Source of the DNA: a virus
Lineage: Duplodnaviria; Heunggongvirae; Uroviricota; Caudoviricetes
IMG/VR virus record: IMGVR_UViG_2703719354_000009
Coordinates: 1 to 45,557 of that record
DNA: 45,557 nt
Reading direction: 5' to 3' (one strand)
The notes beneath the pieces were generated by a model, which worked only from the letters and a program-made list of their open reading frames with translations, was not told the DNA's origin and ran no database searches. Both the position numbers and the translations under genes were made by a program. Positions 8,182 to 23,924 of the stretch are shown one piece after another (the first letter of the stretch is position 1; each line of letters starts with the position of its first letter).

Positions 8182-8257
8182 GCCGATATAGCTCAGTTGG
8201 TAGAGCAGCGCATTCGTAATGCGAAGGTCGTAGGTTCGACTCCTATTATCGGCACCA
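8182..8257 (+). tRNA. thrW: tRNA-Thr, anticodon CGU
   Basis: 76-nt sequence GCCGATATAGCTCAGTTGGTAGAGCAGCGCATTCGTAATGCG...GGCACCA with cloverleaf arms, anticodon loop CATTCGTAATG and 3' CCA; lies just downstream of proA. Confidence 0.9.
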
Positions 8258-12284: not shown

Positions 12285-12373
12285 ACAAAACAGAGAAGAA
12301 CACCTGCGGTGGCAGCCGCCCGGATGGATTGGGTTATGAGCCCGTCGTCCGGTGATGTTCTTCTCTGTTTTGT
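12285..12373. repeat. Perfect 18-bp inverted repeat (ACAAAACAGAGAAGAACA / TGTTCTTCTCTGTTTTGT) separated by a 53-nt GC-rich loop
   Basis: Arms at 12285-12302 and 12356-12373 are exact reverse complements. A second 10-bp inverted repeat GCGGTACCAG/CTGGTACCGC lies at 12381-12419. Confidence 0.8.
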
Positions 12374-12674
12374 AAAAAGAGCGGTACCAGCCGGAAGCAA
12401 GTGTACAAACTGGTACCGCGAGGACTACACACAGCATAAAGTTGTGGTGCCGGGTGCCTCCCGGTGCCTGGCGAAAGTTGCACACCAGGCGGGTGGGTAT
12501 CCACAGAAGGTCGACTGTCAGCCTCAACCTTAACCCGCGTGCGCTGAGCCGCATTCACCACAACGCTAAGGATTCTCTCTGGTTGAAAATACTTAGCTGT
12601 TATGTGCCTGTCTTTTCACCACTTCAGGCTCGGTGGTATCTTGGTGTTTTCATATAGCCAAGAAGGAAATAGTT

Positions 12675-13278: not shown

Positions 13279-13953
13279 TTAGGCTTTGATTTTGTATCTT
13301 CTTGGTTTTCCTGAGAAAATCACTGTACCAATTATAGAGCAATTACCGTTGATCTTAATGTAAGGCTCAGGCCAGTTTGGGTTTAACGCTTTGAGATAAC
13401 GCTGTGTCCCATCTTCTATCAACCTTTTGAAGGTGGTTTCACCTGTATCGTGCATCAATGCAATAACGTCGTCACCGTGGCAGGCAGGTACTTCAGGATC
13501 GACAAAAATCATGTCTCCCGGGCGGTACTCATCAATCATTGAATCACCTATCACCCGCAAGATATAAGTCATTTCCCCACAGGGTACAGGGCAGGGATAC
13601 GTTTCTGCTGTGCTCAAATCAACCTCAGAATATCCAACTTCTTTCCATGCTCCGGCCTGTACCCATGATATGACAGGGACTAATGTGATTTGTTTATTAG
13701 TGATTGAAACATCAGGTTTTTTTGTGATGTTCGTTGTCTGGTGTTCTTGATCGAGCCATCCGACAGGCAGGTCGAAACATTTTTCGATGTGTCGTGCCAT
13801 GCTGTCACCGATATTTTTAGTAGCACCATCTCCCATAAACCTGCTGGTCTGGGTTGGCTCGCGATCAATCATAGTGGCAAAGGAAGAATTCCCGCCAACA
13901 CCATCTCTCAGTTTTCTGGCGTTAGACCGCCGGATGTCATGGATTGTTTTCAT
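13279..13953 (-). CDS. cI: CI-type phage repressor (HTH plus S24 LexA-like peptidase domain)
   Basis: 224 aa; C-terminal S24 signature ...VIGDSMIDEYRPGDMIFVD...FKRL...; divergent from a cro-like gene; no Shine-Dalgarno upstream of the ATG. Confidence 0.85.
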   Translation of the reverse strand: MKTIHDIRRSNARKLRDGVGGNSSFATMIDREPTQTSRFMGDGATKNIGDSMARHIEKCFDLPVGWLDQEHQTTNITKKPDVSITNKQITLVPVISWVQAGAWKEVGYSEVDLSTAETYPCPVPCGEMTYILRVIGDSMIDEYRPGDMIFVDPEVPACHGDDVIALMHDTGETTFKRLIEDGTQRYLKALNPNWPEPYIKINGNCSIIGTVIFSGKPRRYKIKA

Positions 13954-16622: not shown

Positions 16623-17275
16623 TGAGTAATAAATATTGCCAGGCGCTGGTGGAACTGCGGAACAAACCAGCCCATGAACTGAAGGAAGTGGGCGATCAGT
16701 GGCGCACGCCGGACAACATTTTCTGTGGAATTAACACCCTGTTTGGCCCGTTTGTTCTGGATCTGTTTACTGACGGTGATAACGCCAAATGTGCCGCGTA
16801 TTACACGGCGGAAGATAACGCGCTGGCGCATGACTGGTCAGAACGTCTTGCGGAGCTTAAAGGTGCTGCCTTTGGTAATCCCCCATACAGCCGCGCCAGT
16901 CAGCATGAGGGGCAATACATCACCGGCATGCGTTACATCATGAAACATGCCAGTGCCATGCGTGATAAGGGCGGGCGCTATGTTTTCCTGATCAAAGCTG
17001 CCACCAGCGAAGTGTGGTGGCCGGAAGATGCGGACCATATTGCTTTTATTCGCGGGCGTATTGGTTTTGAACTGCCTGCCTGGTTTATCCCGAAGGATGA
17101 GAAGCAGGTGCCGACAGGCGCTTTCTTCGCTGGTGCTATTGCTGTTTTCGACAAGACCTGGAAGGGACCGGCAATCAGCTACATCGGGCGCGATGAACTT
17201 GAGGCATGTGGTGAAGCCTTTCTGGTGCAGGTTCGCCAGCAGGCGGAAAAACTGGTCAGGGAGATGGCGGCATGA
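16622..17275 (+). CDS. Phage DNA N6-adenine methyltransferase (Dam-like)
   Basis: Start at MSNKYCQALV (overlapping TAATG); contains the catalytic GNPPY motif. Confidence 0.8.
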   Translation: MSNKYCQALVELRNKPAHELKEVGDQWRTPDNIFCGINTLFGPFVLDLFTDGDNAKCAAYYTAEDNALAHDWSERLAELKGAAFGNPPYSRASQHEGQYITGMRYIMKHASAMRDKGGRYVFLIKAATSEVWWPEDADHIAFIRGRIGFELPAWFIPKDEKQVPTGAFFAGAIAVFDKTWKGPAISYIGRDELEACGEAFLVQVRQQAEKLVREMAA

Positions 17276-17598
17276 CGACGTTAACTCAATGCCAGCAGCA
17301 GGTGCTGGATATGCTGATTTCTTACCAGAAAGAGCGTGGCTTTCCGCCAACCAATCAGGAGGTGGCAACCATGCTGGGATACCGTTCAGTGAATGCAGCG
17401 GTAGAGCATCTTCGTGCACTGGAGAAAAAAGGCGTCATCACGATAAAGCGTGGCGTGGCCCGGGGGATAACGCTTCATACCGCGGTGAAGGACGACGACA
17501 GCGAGGCGGTCGGGATTATCCGCGCACTGCTTGCCGGTGAGGAAAACGCCAGGCTGCGTGCAGCCCACTGGTTACATGAGAGAGGCCTGAAAGTATGA
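17272..17598 (+). CDS. LexA N-terminal-domain-like DNA-binding protein
   Basis: 108 aa, MTTLTQCQQQVLDMLISYQKERGFPPTNQEVATMLGYRSVNAAVEHLRALEKKGVI resembles the LexA winged-helix domain without a peptidase domain. Confidence 0.6.
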   Translation: MTTLTQCQQQVLDMLISYQKERGFPPTNQEVATMLGYRSVNAAVEHLRALEKKGVITIKRGVARGITLHTAVKDDDSEAVGIIRALLAGEENARLRAAHWLHERGLKV

Positions 17599-18814: not shown

Positions 18815-19810
18815 GTGACCGTGAGAGCACTACTGACCCCTGAAATTGCCCCGCGTATGGGGATCGTATTGTTCAGACCAGGTTCAGAGCTGATGCCCCT
18901 GTTTATGCAGGGGCGTGTCCTGCTGGAGCCTGAGCCGGAACGTTATTCATCTTTCGCCAGTGGTGCCGTTCCGGCGGCATCACAACCGCTGGCGGATGAT
19001 CCTGCCGTTCAGGCCGTGTTCCGCAATGAGGCAGTGATCCGTCGTGCTGGTGGCGTGGAATGTCTTGAAAGCTGGTTACTTCGTGAAAAAGGCTGCCAGT
19101 GGCCTCATTCCGACTGGCACAGCGAGAACATGACCACAATGCGACACGCTCCGGGCGCAATCCGTCTGTGCTGGCACTGCGATAACCAGCTGCGCGATCA
19201 GTTCACGGAACGGCTGGAATCAATGGCAACGGATAACTGTGCCCGCTGGGTGTTGTCTGTTGTGCGTCGGGATCTCGGTTTTGATGACAGTCACGTTGTG
19301 ACAATGCCGGAACTGTGCTGGTGGCTGATTCGTAATGATCTGGCGGATGCCTTACCGGAAAGTGCAGCCCGTAAGGCACTGAGATTACCGAAGCCTGTTG
19401 TGCCGTCTGTTACCCGGGAAAGTGACCTTGTGCCTTCGGTTCCTGCCACCAGCATCATCCAGGATAAGGCGAAAAAGGTGCTGGCGCTGAAAGTGGATCC
19501 GGAGTCGCCGGAGTCTTTTATGTTACGCCCAAAACGTCGCCGCTGGGTTAATGAAAAGTACACGCGCTGGGTTAAGACACAGCCGTGTGCATGTTGTGGA
19601 AAGCCTGCTGATGATCCCCACCACTTGATAGGCCACGGTCAGGGTGGGATGGGTACAAAAGCGCATGACCTCTTTGTGTTGCCTTTGTGCAGAAAGCATC
19701 ACGACGAGCTGCATGCGGATACCGTGGCATTTGAAGAGAAGTATGGCTCCCAGCTGGAGCTGATATTTCGTTTTATCGATCGTGCGCTGGCAATTGGCGT
19801 GCTGGCCTGA
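18815..19810 (+). CDS. DUF968-family phage protein (YdfU-like)
   Basis: GTG start; C-terminal Cys/His-rich segment CACCGKPADDPHHLIGHGQGGMGTKAHDLFVLPLCRKHHDELH. Confidence 0.55.
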   Translation: MTVRALLTPEIAPRMGIVLFRPGSELMPLFMQGRVLLEPEPERYSSFASGAVPAASQPLADDPAVQAVFRNEAVIRRAGGVECLESWLLREKGCQWPHSDWHSENMTTMRHAPGAIRLCWHCDNQLRDQFTERLESMATDNCARWVLSVVRRDLGFDDSHVVTMPELCWWLIRNDLADALPESAARKALRLPKPVVPSVTRESDLVPSVPATSIIQDKAKKVLALKVDPESPESFMLRPKRRRWVNEKYTRWVKTQPCACCGKPADDPHHLIGHGQGGMGTKAHDLFVLPLCRKHHDELHADTVAFEEKYGSQLELIFRFIDRALAIGVLA

Positions 19811-19827
19811 TTTTGTGGAGAAAGTTG

Positions 19828-20175
19828 ATGCGTGATATGTATGAAGTGATGGATCGTTGGGGAGCTTGGGCTGCTTCAGACAATAGCGGAGTGGACTGGC
19901 AACCGGTAGCCGCTGGCTTCAAGGGGCTTTTACCTCATGGCAAAAAGTCCCGGATTCAGTGTGATGATGATGAGGGGCTCATGATCGATGGGTGCGTAGC
20001 TAGATTAAGAAAGTACAAACCAGAAGAGTATGAATTAGTTATAGCCCATTTTGTGGTAGGGATTTCATTGCGAGCCATTGCTAAGAAGAGAAAGTGTTCG
20101 GATGGGACTATCAGGAAAGAGTTGCAAACATCGCTTGGTTTCATTGAAGGCATTGTTTGCACTCTTGCCTGTTAA
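19828..20175 (+). CDS. Late-gene antitermination protein Q (QuuD-like)
   Basis: Start at MRDMYEVMDRWGAWAASDNSGVDWQPVAAGFKGL..., close to the recalled DLP12 QuuD N-terminus; GGAG upstream; precedes the lysis genes. Confidence 0.8.
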   Translation: MRDMYEVMDRWGAWAASDNSGVDWQPVAAGFKGLLPHGKKSRIQCDDDEGLMIDGCVARLRKYKPEEYELVIAHFVVGISLRAIAKKRKCSDGTIRKELQTSLGFIEGIVCTLAC

Positions 20176-20196
20176 CTATTCTTAACTGTCTTCTAG

Positions 20197-21081
20197 TTAT
20201 ATTGGGCGCTTTGAATTCGATTTAAAGCGTCTTCCACTTATCCCTGAAATCCAAATGTCTTCCTCAAGAAAGTCAAGAAGGGCTTTTATTTCTTTTTTTG
20301 ATGAAGGCATGACAATTTTCTCAACACCGCCAACTATTATGGTTTGTAAGGGGAAATTGACTTTAGCAGCTTCGGATTTAAACTTTGACATATTTTGGGG
20401 TGTTAGCATCCCAGTCTGATTTATTAGTGTTACTTTATTTCTTATCACTGTATCTGCAACGGATTTTAGATCAAAACCTTGGGGAGTAGAAAATACACTA
20501 AGTTGACTAAATGCATTAAGTTCTTGGTCAGTAGCAGCAGAAAAATAGGACGACATGTCAAAAATGCTTCTTAGATTAAAGAAACTCTTAAATCGTATTG
20601 TATCATTGATAATTATTGCAACTAGTTTATCATCAACATTAAAACCGATGCTATTAGCTTTACTAAAGGTAGTTTTGCTTGCAAAAAGCTTTCCAAAGAA
20701 TGATTTTGAGGTATCTAAGATTTGTTTTTTGTTGAAGGTTTGTAGCGCAATAATATTGGGGTTTGCTGGCGCGTCAACACCAACAAATAATGCTTTAATA
20801 TAACCAATATCAATTTGGCTGGGATCCCAGACAGGCACGGCGGTAGGCCTATTGACTGCGTCAATCAGGCGTGCAGAATCAGTAAAGTTTTGTATTTCAA
20901 AACACTCACTATGTTTTGGTGTATAACCGGCATAGAATGGTATCATATTGTTATGATGACTTTCAAAATATTGACGCTGTTGTTGGAAAATGGCCGTAAC
21001 AGAAGTACTTGCTGTTGCATCAAGTTCGACTCTAACAATTCTCGTTGCAATTGTATTATCTATTACTGCAAAAAGTGCCAT
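20197..21081 (-). CDS. Hypothetical 294-aa protein, downstream gene of an AT-rich two-gene cargo cassette (candidate defence/exclusion component)
   Basis: AAGGA about 8 nt upstream of the ATG; 5-bp gap to the upstream membrane-protein gene; AT-rich composition contrasts with the flanking phage genes; no motif I can assign. Confidence 0.6.
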   Translation of the reverse strand: MALFAVIDNTIATRIVRVELDATASTSVTAIFQQQRQYFESHHNNMIPFYAGYTPKHSECFEIQNFTDSARLIDAVNRPTAVPVWDPSQIDIGYIKALFVGVDAPANPNIIALQTFNKKQILDTSKSFFGKLFASKTTFSKANSIGFNVDDKLVAIIINDTIRFKSFFNLRSIFDMSSYFSAATDQELNAFSQLSVFSTPQGFDLKSVADTVIRNKVTLINQTGMLTPQNMSKFKSEAAKVNFPLQTIIVGGVEKIVMPSSKKEIKALLDFLEEDIWISGISGRRFKSNSKRPI

Positions 21082-21086
21082 GGTTA

Positions 21087-21608
21087 TTATCCTTTAACAT
21101 GTAGAAATGTGTAGTCTGTTAATTGAATAACTGTAAATTTGATATCTTTAATATCAGTAATGACTGATTTAGAAATCAATACAAAACCTACGCCGGTGTC
21201 ATCTTCAGCTTCGTAAAATTTATAACCGATAAGTGACAATACTGGGTTAAAGTTATAGTTCTCGGAAAAGCTGATGTAAAATAACAATGACAAATAAAAG
21301 AATAACGCATATGCTTTATTTTCAGCAATAGAGTCTGTTCCTAGGAGAGGGAATAAATAGCTTAAGAAATAATTAGTTACTTCTTTGTTAGCGGGAGAAA
21401 CTGAACTAATATTTTTTGTCAGAGGTTCAAGTTGTTTCTCAGCATATTGAATCAGGCCTATTGCTAATAACCAACTTGCTATGCCAACGCATAAGCTATA
21501 TTGCATCAGCCAAACCGTATCTTTTACATATCCAATAAAAAATAGAGTTGCGCAAACAGGTGCAATTGAGCTTGCTGTTAATAATAAGCGTGCTAATTTG
21601 TTCATCAT
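21087..21608 (-). CDS. Hypothetical 173-aa integral membrane protein, upstream gene of the cassette
   Basis: AAGGA 5 nt upstream of the ATG; three to four hydrophobic helices (LLLTASSIAPVCATLFFIGYV, YSLCVGIASWLLAIGLIQY, YALFFYLSLLFYISF) and a ~60-aa C-terminal soluble tail. Confidence 0.6.
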   Translation of the reverse strand: MMNKLARLLLTASSIAPVCATLFFIGYVKDTVWLMQYSLCVGIASWLLAIGLIQYAEKQLEPLTKNISSVSPANKEVTNYFLSYLFPLLGTDSIAENKAYALFFYLSLLFYISFSENYNFNPVLSLIGYKFYEAEDDTGVGFVLISKSVITDIKDIKFTVIQLTDYTFLHVKG

Positions 21609-21765
21609 GATATCCTTTGTACTGTTTATGCATACAGCACTTTACATCATGTACTCCAAAGTATCTATCTTGTGAAGAATCTTACACTAAATACTACAGA
21701 AAAAGTTAACGCGTACGCAAAAAGTATTATATCGTGTTAAGAGTGGTTACTTCGCCACACAGCTT

Positions 21766-21800
21766 AAACCCGCCATTGAGCGGGTTTTGTCGTTTTTGGG
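21766..21800 (+). terminator. Rho-independent terminator, candidate tR' upstream of the lysis genes
   Basis: AAACCCGC-CATTGA-GCGGGTTT hairpin followed by TGTCGTTTTT; about 140 bp upstream of the holin. Confidence 0.5.
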
Positions 21801-21938
21801 CCTAGGGATTCGTTGGGCCTGGTCTATCCCGCAGTTATCCATTGGCTCGGCTTCTTTGACGTTTCCGCTTCTGATTTGCGGTACATGATGTTCCCTCAAT
21901 TTGCACCTCCTGTATTGCGAGGTGAGAGATAACTACAA

Positions 21939-22265
21939 ATGCCTCATAACCCAAATACCTGGCTGGAGTTGGTCCAGAGCTGGTGGCGTGGAGACACACC
22001 GCTGGGCGCAGTGATTATGTCGATCGTTATGGCTGGCTTGCGCATTGCCTATTTTGGCGGTGGTGGTGGCTGGAAGCGAAAAACGCTCGAGATTTTGCTC
22101 TGTGGCGCTTTGACGCTGACCTTTGCATCCGCTCTTGAGTATGTCGGATGGCCTAAATCGCTTTCTGTTGCCATTGGTGGCGGTGTTGGGCTGATCGGTG
22201 TCGATGCTATTCGTGGGGCTGCAATGCGAGTAATCGGTAACAAATTTGGTAGCACGAAGGAGTAA
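21939..22265 (+). CDS. Holin
   Basis: 108-aa protein with three hydrophobic helices immediately upstream of a lambda R-type endolysin. Confidence 0.7.
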   Translation: MPHNPNTWLELVQSWWRGDTPLGAVIMSIVMAGLRIAYFGGGGGWKRKTLEILLCGALTLTFASALEYVGWPKSLSVAIGGGVGLIGVDAIRGAAMRVIGNKFGSTKE

Positions 22266-22268
22266 TTT

Positions 22269-22745
22269 ATGCAGGTACTAAATTCCCAGCGTAAAGCTTT
22301 CCTCGATATGGTGGCATGGTCAGAAGGAACGGATAACGGGCGACAACCGACACGTAACCACGGTTATGATGTTATTGTCGGTGGAGAACTCTTCACTGAT
22401 TACTCCGATCACCCTCGCAAACTTGTCACGCTAAACCCCAAACTCAAATCAACAGCGGCCGGACGTTACCAGCTTCTTTCCCGTTGGTGGGATGCTTACC
22501 GCAAGCAGTTAGGGCTGACAGACTTCTCTCCTAAAAGCCAGGATGCTGTTGCATTACAGCAGATTAAAGAGCGTGGCGCTTTACCGATGATTGATCGCGG
22601 CGATATTCGTCAGGCTATCGATCGTTGCAGCAATATCTGGGCGTCGTTACCTGGTGCAGGTTACGGTCAGTATGAACATAAAATCGGTGACCTGATTTCC
22701 CGTTTTAAAGAGGCTGGTGGGGTGGTAAATGAAGTTGAGCTATAA
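22269..22745 (+). CDS. R: Endolysin, lambda R-type lytic transglycosylase
   Basis: 158 aa; ...NSQRKAFLDMVAWSEGTDNGRQPTRNHGYDVIVGGELFTDYSDHPRKLVTLNPKLKSTAAGRYQLLSRWWDAYRKQLGL... is near-identical to lambda R as recalled. Confidence 0.9.
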   Translation: MQVLNSQRKAFLDMVAWSEGTDNGRQPTRNHGYDVIVGGELFTDYSDHPRKLVTLNPKLKSTAAGRYQLLSRWWDAYRKQLGLTDFSPKSQDAVALQQIKERGALPMIDRGDIRQAIDRCSNIWASLPGAGYGQYEHKIGDLISRFKEAGGVVNEVEL

Positions 22746-23121
22746 GCTGGCTATCTCTGCATTCTTCTTTACTGTCATCGGTTCTTTCATCTGGTCTGCC
22801 AACCACTACTACAGCAAATATCAGCACGAAAAGAAACGTGCTGATGAGGCTGTACGAAATGCTGAATCAGCAACAGCCATTACCAATAACGTCCTGCAAT
22901 CACTACAAATCGTCAATACAGTTCTGGAGGCTAACCAGCATGCAAAACAGCAGATCGCACTGGAGTCACAGAGAACCCAGGAAGATATCAAAGTGGCTGT
23001 TGAGAATGATGATTGCGCTTCACGTGCTGTGCCTGCTGCCGCTGCTGACCGGTTGCGGAAGTACGCGGACAGTTTACGTGCAGGTTCCAACGATGCCGTT
23101 ACCGGCGAACCTGCTCGCTGA
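22729..23121 (+). CDS. Rz: i-spanin (Rz-like)
   Basis: 130 aa with N-terminal transmembrane segment and coiled-coil-like body; overlaps the endolysin end. Confidence 0.7.
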   Translation: MKLSYKLAISAFFFTVIGSFIWSANHYYSKYQHEKKRADEAVRNAESATAITNNVLQSLQIVNTVLEANQHAKQQIALESQRTQEDIKVAVENDDCASRAVPAAAADRLRKYADSLRAGSNDAVTGEPAR

Positions 23122-23281
23122 AACTCCACAGCCAGTTATCCCCAATCCTCTGACTTATGGAGGTAGCCTAGATTTAAATGTCAGTTTATTGTCGGCATTA
23201 TGGCAGTGCAATTTGGATAAAGCGGGGATTAGAAAGATAGAGGCGAGCCGGTCAGGTAGAAGTGAATCAGGCTCAAAGTGA
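23006..23281 (+). CDS. Rz1: o-spanin (Rz1-like lipoprotein), overlapped arrangement
   Basis: Alternate frame within Rz; MMIALHVLCLLPLLTGCGS has a lipobox (LTGC) followed by a Pro-rich segment; extends 160 bp past the Rz stop. Confidence 0.6.
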   Translation: MMIALHVLCLLPLLTGCGSTRTVYVQVPTMPLPANLLAETPQPVIPNPLTYGGSLDLNVSLLSALWQCNLDKAGIRKIEASRSGRSESGSK

Positions 23282-23573
23282 AGCGGAAAAGCTCTTTGGC
23301 ATAAGGTGACGTAATAATAATTACAGTCAACTGACTTTTGGAACGAAACATGTTTAACCTCCTTAATTGGTGTTATTCGAGTGATGAAGGCATTCTGTCC
23401 TTCTGTAGTGTCCAGTAAATCAAACAGGAAACTTGTCCAACGTGTTGGACAAGCCTCTCCATTAGTGAGTTGTATTGATCACAACTCTACAAAGTATTCA
23501 TTACTGGGTAGATGAAAATAGTTTCACGATGAATGGAGGAGGCTATGTCGGTGGCTTCTTCATTGGAGTACAT

Positions 23574-23924
23574 ATGCCATCACGAATCCCAAAAGCCTGC
23601 CGTGTTCGTGGCTGCCGCCATACCACCACAGACCCGTCAGGCTACTGCGAAAGCCACAAAAGCGAAGGCTGGAAGCAATACAAGCCAGGCCAGTCCCGTC
23701 ATCAGCGCGGCTACGGTTCGAAATGGGATGCTATCCGTGAACGTGTACTGAAGCGTGACAAAGGCCTGTGTCAGTTATGTCTGCGTGCCGGTGTGGTGCG
23801 TGAGGCGAAAACCGTTGACCACATCATCCCTAAAGCACATGGCGGCACTGATGCCGACAGTAATCTGCAGAGTCTGTGCTGGCCGTGTCATAAGGCGAAG
23901 ACGGCCCGTGAACGGTTAAAGTGA
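23574..23924 (+). CDS. HNH endonuclease (terminase-associated)
   Basis: Start taken at the third Met (MPSRIPKACRVRGC...); HNH motif ...VDHIIPKAHGGTDADSNLQSLCWPCHKAK; upstream of the terminase genes. Confidence 0.75.
   Translation: MPSRIPKACRVRGCRHTTTDPSGYCESHKSEGWKQYKPGQSRHQRGYGSKWDAIRERVLKRDKGLCQLCLRAGVVREAKTVDHIIPKAHGGTDADSNLQSLCWPCHKAKTARERLK

Follow-up and report, generated by a model that had tools for sequence, protein, structure and literature searches.

A predicted Kiwa anti-phage operon in the Q–holin gap of a P27-like prophage is preceded by a conserved candidate LexA operator

In the 45,557-nt IMG/VR virus record IMGVR_UViG_2703719354_000009 (hereafter the window, meaning the whole stretch analysed), two small genes on the minus strand separate the antiterminator Q gene from the holin gene. 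This cassette is very probably a complete two-gene Kiwa anti-phage defence operon, kwaAB, carried as cargo by a P27-like/lambdoid prophage at tRNA-Thr. The Kiwa call itself is already known, since an identical cassette that RefSeq names as Kiwa is present in 33 E. coli genomes; the PADLOC models and the RefSeq annotation recognise these exact genes. What goes beyond it is a predicted LexA operator, conserved upstream of kwaA, and a cargo hotspot that also holds two unclassified cassettes.

An initial annotation, made from the letters of the window, had placed two AT-rich open reading frames of 173 and 294 codons between Q and the holin, 5 bp apart, each behind an AAGGA ribosome-binding site. 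All of these features hold (Table 1). The genes are co-oriented in the order kwaA, kwaB, with 5 nt between the kwaA stop codon and the kwaB ATG. The ribosome-binding site of kwaA, AAGGA, occupies 21617..21613; that of kwaB, AAAGGA (21095..21090), lies within the final kwaA codons. kwaA begins with tandem in-frame ATGs, and the second, at 21605, is better spaced from AAGGA than the first and is the start in most KwaA homologues and in one call of the Prokaryotic Genome Annotation Pipeline (PGAP). The G+C fraction is 0.33 in kwaA, 0.36 in kwaB and 0.35 over 20176–21800, against 0.51 in the remainder of the window. The flanking genes are confirmed as Q and holin by Pfam. The cassette is intact, and 33 of 5,426 complete E. 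coli genomes share it at 99–100% nucleotide identity (threshold at least 99%); a distant variant is present in 38 further E. coli genomes.

Full-length profile matches carry the assignment. KwaA matches the PADLOC KwaA model PDLC00216 over residues 1–172 of 173 (E = 1.9e-83), and KwaB matches the PADLOC KwaB model PDLC00225 with residues 1–294 against model positions 1–291 of 291 (E = 2.3e-150). KwaB also scores above the gathering cut-off of Pfam KwaB (PF16162), and close homologues of KwaA carry the precomputed Pfam assignment PF28043, labelled 'KwaA'. In RefSeq the identical kwaA is named 'KwaA family protein' or 'hypothetical protein', and the identical kwaB 'Kiwa anti-phage protein KwaB-like domain-containing protein'. 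Both proteins fall in PHROGs families without known function, and none of the NCBIfam models matched KwaB. An exhaustive profile search retrieved 1,035 representative clusters, 752 of them at E ≤ 1e-10, showing that the Kiwa clade with a KwaB of ~290 aa is large. The resemblance to a KwaA/KwaB layout that the initial annotation had noticed is thus borne out by the PADLOC and Pfam hidden Markov model searches it proposed, by RefSeq and by the structures described below. It was also correct in excluding a cyclase of the CBASS or Pycsar families, for which neither PADLOC nor Pfam returned a match. Toxin–antitoxin and enzyme identities were likewise rejected, as family searches gave no supporting match.

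Structures were predicted for both proteins and searched, and the only significant matches are solved KwaA and KwaB structures. In the AlphaFold2 (AF2) model of KwaA (predicted local distance difference test score, pLDDT, 76), four transmembrane helices span residues 2–28, 32–59, 76–96 and 98–114, a β-hairpin lies in the intracellular loop (63–72), and four strands make up the C-terminal part (130–136, 141–146, 157–162 and 167–170). Three to four membrane helices had been proposed at the outset; the model has four, and the lower number falls. KwaA as modelled is an inner-membrane protein that has four transmembrane helices plus a cytoplasmic β-domain, like characterised KwaA (PMC11785009). Its top seven Foldseek matches in the PDB are all KwaA (9mrg, 9mrx_A and 9mrr; E = 2e-6 to 5e-5, template-modelling scores 0.54–0.69, 17–18% identity), and the following match has E = 0.7. 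KwaB is soluble and comprises an N-terminal Rossmann-like α/β domain and a C-terminal DUF4868/KwaB domain. A low-confidence loop in its model (122–143) sits roughly where solved KwaB has its flexible DE loop (134–174).

The reference for these comparisons is the Kiwa system of E. coli O55:H7 RM12579 (KwaA P0DW45, KwaB P0DW46; Doron 2018; Zhang, Todeschini et al., PMC11785009), with structures 9mrg, 9mrr, 9mrx, 9o0i, 9mtn and 9nyu. Set beside it, some results count against the Kiwa assignment. KwaA scores 46 bits with the NCBIfam KwaA equivalog NF041622, whose cut-off is 100 (E = 5.1e-12, residues 34–161). Identity to the structurally solved Kiwa proteins is just 9–18%, and Kiwa chains were found among PDB sequences neither by phmmer with KwaA and KwaB singly nor with profiles of 35, 37 and 61 homologues. 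The trigger, the phage range and the interface and DNA-contact residues of this clade may consequently differ from those of the O55:H7 system. The low NF041622 score indicates that KwaA is homologous but belongs to a subfamily other than the model's. Weak PDB sequence matches to VirB, CinA and prephenate dehydratase (E > 0.2) were treated as chance similarities, and the cassette proteins are linked to the Kiwa structures by structure comparison only. KwaB contains 32 K+R versus 27 D+E residues, and the 9–18% identity of the two proteins to solved chains prevents reliable residue-level mapping. We place the cassette in a deeply divergent Kiwa clade.

Divergence of this degree raises the question of whether the Kiwa fold is kept while the clade acts differently, for instance in prophage superinfection exclusion with another trigger or through an effector activity other than DNA binding. 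Such a change of function would fit the low identity, the missing sequence-level link to the PDB chains, the sub-threshold KwaA score and the length of both proteins (173 and 294 aa, shorter than the solved chains), and three Kiwa clusters are known to differ in phage specificity (PMC11785009). We nevertheless consider it rather improbable. The entire architecture is conserved, from the gene order through KwaA with four transmembrane helices and a β-domain to two-domain KwaB with DUF4868, and neither PADLOC nor Pfam revealed an extra domain or catalytic motif. Moreover, five of five tested Kiwa systems from different clusters defended against phages (PMC11785009). Tested systems include those of ECOR8, ECOR12, ECOR49 and D9; among the genome matches listed for the cassette there is no ECOR strain.

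Upstream of kwaA lies a predicted LexA box. Its palindromic core, CTGT-N8-ACAG, was first seen when 200 nt upstream of kwaA were aligned from five unrelated contexts, all five of which have one. We widened the comparison to 64 viral contigs, four genomes and other loci, yielding 42 distinct upstream regions. A scan of GTDB gave just four loci. Exactly one box is present in 41 of them, beginning 28–42 nt before the start codon, and in the 42nd the box has lost 1 nt; from the background rate at these loci, 0.055 boxes would be expected in each upstream region, a statistic that ignores relatedness. The boxes comprise 26 different sequences with the consensus TACTGTATATATAAACAGTA, which we take to be that of E. 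coli LexA, TACTG(TA)5CAGTA. Per column, the arms of the box hold 1.77 bits of information, compared with 0.96 bits for the spacer and 0.29 bits for the 60 nt of flank upstream. With an approximate LexA matrix built from ~19 E. coli sites, so that all scores are approximate too, the clade boxes reach 20.8–28.2 bits versus 14.7–28.5 bits for the matrix-building sites. The box of the window is the best match to this matrix in 45.5 kb (21.8 bits, runner-up 13.8), and CTGT-N8-ACAG occurs there once. The box is retained in the Kiwa copy of a P4-like satellite (APEC O18, 39% KwaB identity) and in Salmonella-island copies. It is not present upstream of other cargo cassettes in the same Q–holin slot, and we rejected the idea that it is a property of the slot instead of Kiwa.

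The box adjoins a putative σ70 promoter. In most of the 41 upstream regions aligned on the box, a TAnnnT element ends 1 nt before CTGT, preceded ~17 nt further upstream by one resembling TGGATA. In the window the putative −10 hexamer TAAAGT abuts the LexA box, a geometry typical of LexA-repressed promoters. From this arrangement we think it likely that kwaAB has its own promoter, with the −10 element abutting a LexA operator, and that the clade is LexA-repressed and SOS-induced. For the broader proposal, that the entire enterobacterial Kiwa clade in prophages, Klebsiella and Proteus phages, P4-like satellites and islands belongs directly to the LexA regulon, the odds seem evenly balanced. A promoter contributed by the backbone was considered as well: a perfect TATAAT lies at 21731..21726 on the minus strand, but it lacks a −35 element, and a Kiwa-specific promoter/operator explains the data better.

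Under LexA control, undamaged lysogens would express kwaAB at a low level and raise it once SOS is triggered. The same response probably induces this prophage and its neighbours; the repressor-like gene of the prophage (13279–13953) encodes a self-cleaving S24 peptidase domain. Because the same signal would raise kwaAB and induce prophages, Kiwa defence would peak while many temperate phages are released.

Other observations speak against such control. Because the loci share ancestry, their independence is overstated by the binomial figure for the boxes. The promoter hexamers are weak, with 4/6 matches each, and were not reported by a consensus scan. Kiwa of a Pseudomonas Pf phage (33% identity) has no box in the stretch read upstream of kwaA (L087 400–640). 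In a transcriptome survey, the expression of defence systems tends to correlate negatively with recA (bioRxiv 10.64898/2025.12.14.694197).

The palindrome could also be bound by a factor other than host LexA, or have no regulatory effect. The prophage itself encodes a candidate factor, a 108-aa protein that consists of a LexA DNA-binding domain without the S24 cleavage domain (Table 1); its gene lies in the early-right operon between those for Dam methylase and RusA, and in relatives without Kiwa a LexA-family gene is annotated at this position. This protein could be a non-cleavable LexA mimic that acts on SOS boxes, including the Kiwa operator. That a factor other than LexA binds, or that the palindrome has no effect, seems improbable to us, however. 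Copies in the P4-like satellite and the Salmonella island retain the box, and the searched-for phage early-region, Q and lysis genes were not seen in the satellite and island stretches examined. Its fit to the host LexA consensus is as good as that of the E. coli sites in the matrix, and its conserved arms with drifting spacer and flanks are the selection signature expected of a palindrome that binds a dimer. Binding by the 108-aa protein would, in addition, be compatible with LexA control, since both proteins could use the site.

Neither the Kiwa paper (PMC11785009) nor the P4-hotspot paper (PMC9122126) mentions LexA or SOS, and a search for Kiwa together with LexA returned nothing relevant; SOS control of Kiwa is thus not reported in the searched literature. 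The connection between defence expression and the DNA-damage response, during which prophages are induced en masse, would here run through a classical LexA operator that a mobile Kiwa cassette brings along. Should the operator prove functional, this Kiwa clade would depend on the SOS response for its expression, and clones with the native promoter could look weak absent DNA damage, which would affect protection assays. It would also change how the timing of prophage-borne defence relative to induction is viewed: Kiwa, described as a standing membrane sentinel, would be turned up when DNA is damaged, at the same time as prophages are induced.

The cassette occupies an exchangeable segment of the prophage. 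In an alignment with a relative that carries other cargo (L002), similarity ends at the Q stop codon and resumes at 21706. The boundaries were set with this different-cargo relative because no empty Q–holin site was found among the E. coli genomes, in which the flanks are never closer than ~935 bp. In the six relatives sampled, the gap holds five different cassettes on the opposite strand, and three of the five match known or candidate defence models (Table 1). Since the relatives hold varied opposite-strand cassettes there, including matches to defence models, the Q–holin gap is a defence hotspot. The comparison supports two further proposals of the initial annotation, that the cassette was acquired separately and that a defence module sits at the Q–S moron site. 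Two of the cassettes, the pair of an NA37-like and a 404-aa protein and the trio with a DUF4325/STAS-like protein, match no defence model and are cheap candidates for new systems; they come from a widespread E. coli prophage family, whose backbone occurs in roughly 490 E. coli genomes. Literature searches on a Q–lysis defence hotspot turned up only P2/P4 hotspot papers.

The position bears on a different explanation of the pair, a non-defence envelope function such as lipopolysaccharide or membrane modification or another lysogenic conversion. Such a role would suit a small membrane protein with several passes that sits at a classical moron site, and the same prophage has an acyltransferase-3 moron at 42270–43319. 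Even so, an envelope function is exceedingly improbable. No enzyme domains were found, and several sampled relatives hold defence or candidate-defence cassettes in the same slot. The initial annotation had named assignment of both proteins to a non-defence function, by homology or structure, as the result that would speak against defence; in family and structure searches alike, only the matches to Kiwa are significant.

The Kiwa clade keeps this position well beyond E. coli. Among 79 clade loci, which are not dereplicated, 66 have a convergent Q at most 400 nt from the kwaB stop codon, and these span 45–100% KwaB identity; a Salmonella genomic island and P4-like satellites are among the exceptions. 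In Klebsiella phage ST846-OXA48phi9.1, Klebsiella prophages and Proteus prophages, with KwaB identities of 47.5%, 76% and 52%, respectively, homologous cassettes again sit between Q and the lysis genes, which answers the initial suggestion to look for them in the Q–lysis slot of related prophages.

To the right of the cargo, the block at 21706–21797 is conserved in relatives whatever their cargo, and many E. coli genomes share its first 83 nt but show no match to the part of the query that covers the holin. The block probably represents the late promoter/terminator module that depends on this type of Q, although convincing −35/−10 hexamers of a late promoter were not found at 21706–21765. Because this conserved block lies downstream of the cargo, Kiwa falls between Q and this probable late module; it is encoded on the opposite strand and does not belong to the late operon. 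The cassette had initially been described as running against that operon. At its other end, kwaB converges with Q, their stop codons being separated by the 21 nt at 20176–20196. Terminators were found on neither strand between these stop codons, nor in a scan of the minus strand over 19700–22300. With the two convergent genes so close and no terminator found between them, kwaAB transcripts probably continue antisense into Q and early-right transcripts antisense into kwaB, and this overlap could affect the timing of both.

Table 1. Features of the Kiwa cassette, its flanks and the Q–holin slot. Coordinates refer to the window, except for slots in relatives.
Feature	Coordinates	Strand	Details
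Antiterminator Q gene	19813..20175	+	Pfam Phage_antitermQ, E = 1.5e-45; PGAP 'antiterminator Q family protein'
Exchangeable cargo (Kiwa cassette with its own putative promoter/operator)	~20176..21705		Q stop codon to shared backbone; alignment with other-cargo relative
kwaB	21081..20197	−	294 aa; DUF4868/KwaB domain
kwaA	21608..21087	−	173 aa; 172 aa if started at ATG 21605
Predicted LexA box, TGCTGTATGCATAAACAGTA	21639..21620	−	Core CTGT-N8-ACAG at 21637..21622; ends 11 nt before first kwaA ATG
Putative σ70 promoter of kwaAB	21667..21639	−	−35 TAGATA, 21667..21662; 17-nt spacer; −10 TAAAGT, 21644..21639
Conserved backbone block	21706..21797	+	Ends in intrinsic terminator (hairpin 21766–21787 and T-run)
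λ-family holin gene	21939..22265	+	First gene of lysis cassette, right border of slot; Pfam Phage_holin_3_1, E = 5.7e-25; PGAP
LexA DNA-binding-domain-only protein	17272–17598	+	108 aa; PF01726, E = 2.9e-19; 1LEA (E. coli LexA DNA-binding domain), E = 6.5e-16, residues 2–70
Slot cargo in relatives: NA37/YejK-like protein (391 aa) and 404-aa protein			Two genomes; no PADLOC match
Slot cargo in relatives: 363-aa protein, DUF4325 STAS-like protein and 142-aa protein			No PADLOC match
Slot cargo in relatives: PDC-M53A/B			Known or candidate defence model match
Slot cargo in relatives: KAP-family NTPase			Two genomes; PDC-S20, E = 2e-177
Slot cargo in relatives: ThsB-like TIR protein and caspase-family protein
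Extent of slot in relatives	L002 3518–6182; L004 2551–4734; L005 2842–4734; L006 3078–4735; L007 2070–4734; L008 3078–4736; L009 3023–4733

The prophage lies beside a tRNA-Thr(CGU) gene (8182–8257, plus strand), which is its likely attachment site. In the near-identical strain TUM14664, tRNA-Thr immediately precedes the prophage integrase, next to proA. The prophage combines a lambdoid early region with a P27-type small terminase, HK97-type head genes and a contractile tail. A second variable slot extends over ~23080–23574, from the Rz/Rz1 lysis genes to an HNH endonuclease gene; here the window differs from TUM14664, which has a GrlR-family gene, and in other relatives the slot holds DUF6236 genes or genes without annotation, some of them on the opposite strand. 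The moron at 42270–43319, on the opposite (minus) strand downstream of the tail-fibre region, encodes a 349-aa acyltransferase-3 family protein (PF01757, E = 2.2e-30) that resembles a lysogenic-conversion moron of the O-antigen acetylase type. The early-left region contains a match to the Rfam small RNA family STnc100 (12372–12594, minus strand; 48.5 bits, gathering score 47).

From homology to the O55:H7 system we infer how Kiwa may act at this locus. KwaA would form tetramers in the inner membrane, and KwaB dimers would dock on the cytoplasmic β-domain of KwaA (PMC11785009). The resulting KwaA/KwaB membrane lattice would sense membrane distortion at sites of phage attachment or at a conjugation pilus, whereupon DUF4868 of KwaB would bind incoming DNA and stall replication and late transcription (PMC11785009). 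This block would act without abortive infection, so that the cell is not killed (PMC11785009). Functionally, Kiwa systems are defined by protection from phages together with lowered conjugation, for which both genes are needed. In O55:H7, mutagenesis showed that residues of the KwaA–KwaB interface and of the KwaB DNA channel are required, and λ Gam inhibits KwaB (PMC11785009).

The cassette shares with O55:H7 Kiwa the adjacent genes in the order kwaA–kwaB, the four transmembrane helices and cytoplasmic β-domain of KwaA, and the N-terminal α/β and C-terminal DUF4868 domains of KwaB. It differs in sequence, with 9–18% identity, and in size: KwaA and KwaB, at 173 and 294 aa, are shorter than the solved chains, in which 177–195 and 298–315 residues are modelled. 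P4-like satellites likewise carry Kiwa in their defence hotspot (Rousset et al. 2022, PMC9122126). The satellite Kiwa of E. coli APEC O18 belongs to the same clade with a ~290-aa KwaB (39% identity, E = 2e-79) and has a LexA box at the same position upstream of kwaA; its carrier, unlike the Q–lysis slot of a prophage, is a satellite (integrase, kwaB kwaA, ... psu, delta). Among lambdoid phages, cargo between Q and the lysis genes includes stx in Stx phages and nmpC in DLP12. The Kiwa cassette lies at the same inter-module position and, like nmpC, on the strand opposite to the late operon. Whereas stx is Q-dependent and downstream of the late promoter, the Kiwa cargo, with a putative promoter of its own, lies upstream of the conserved block that contains the terminator, and it is therefore probably independent of Q.

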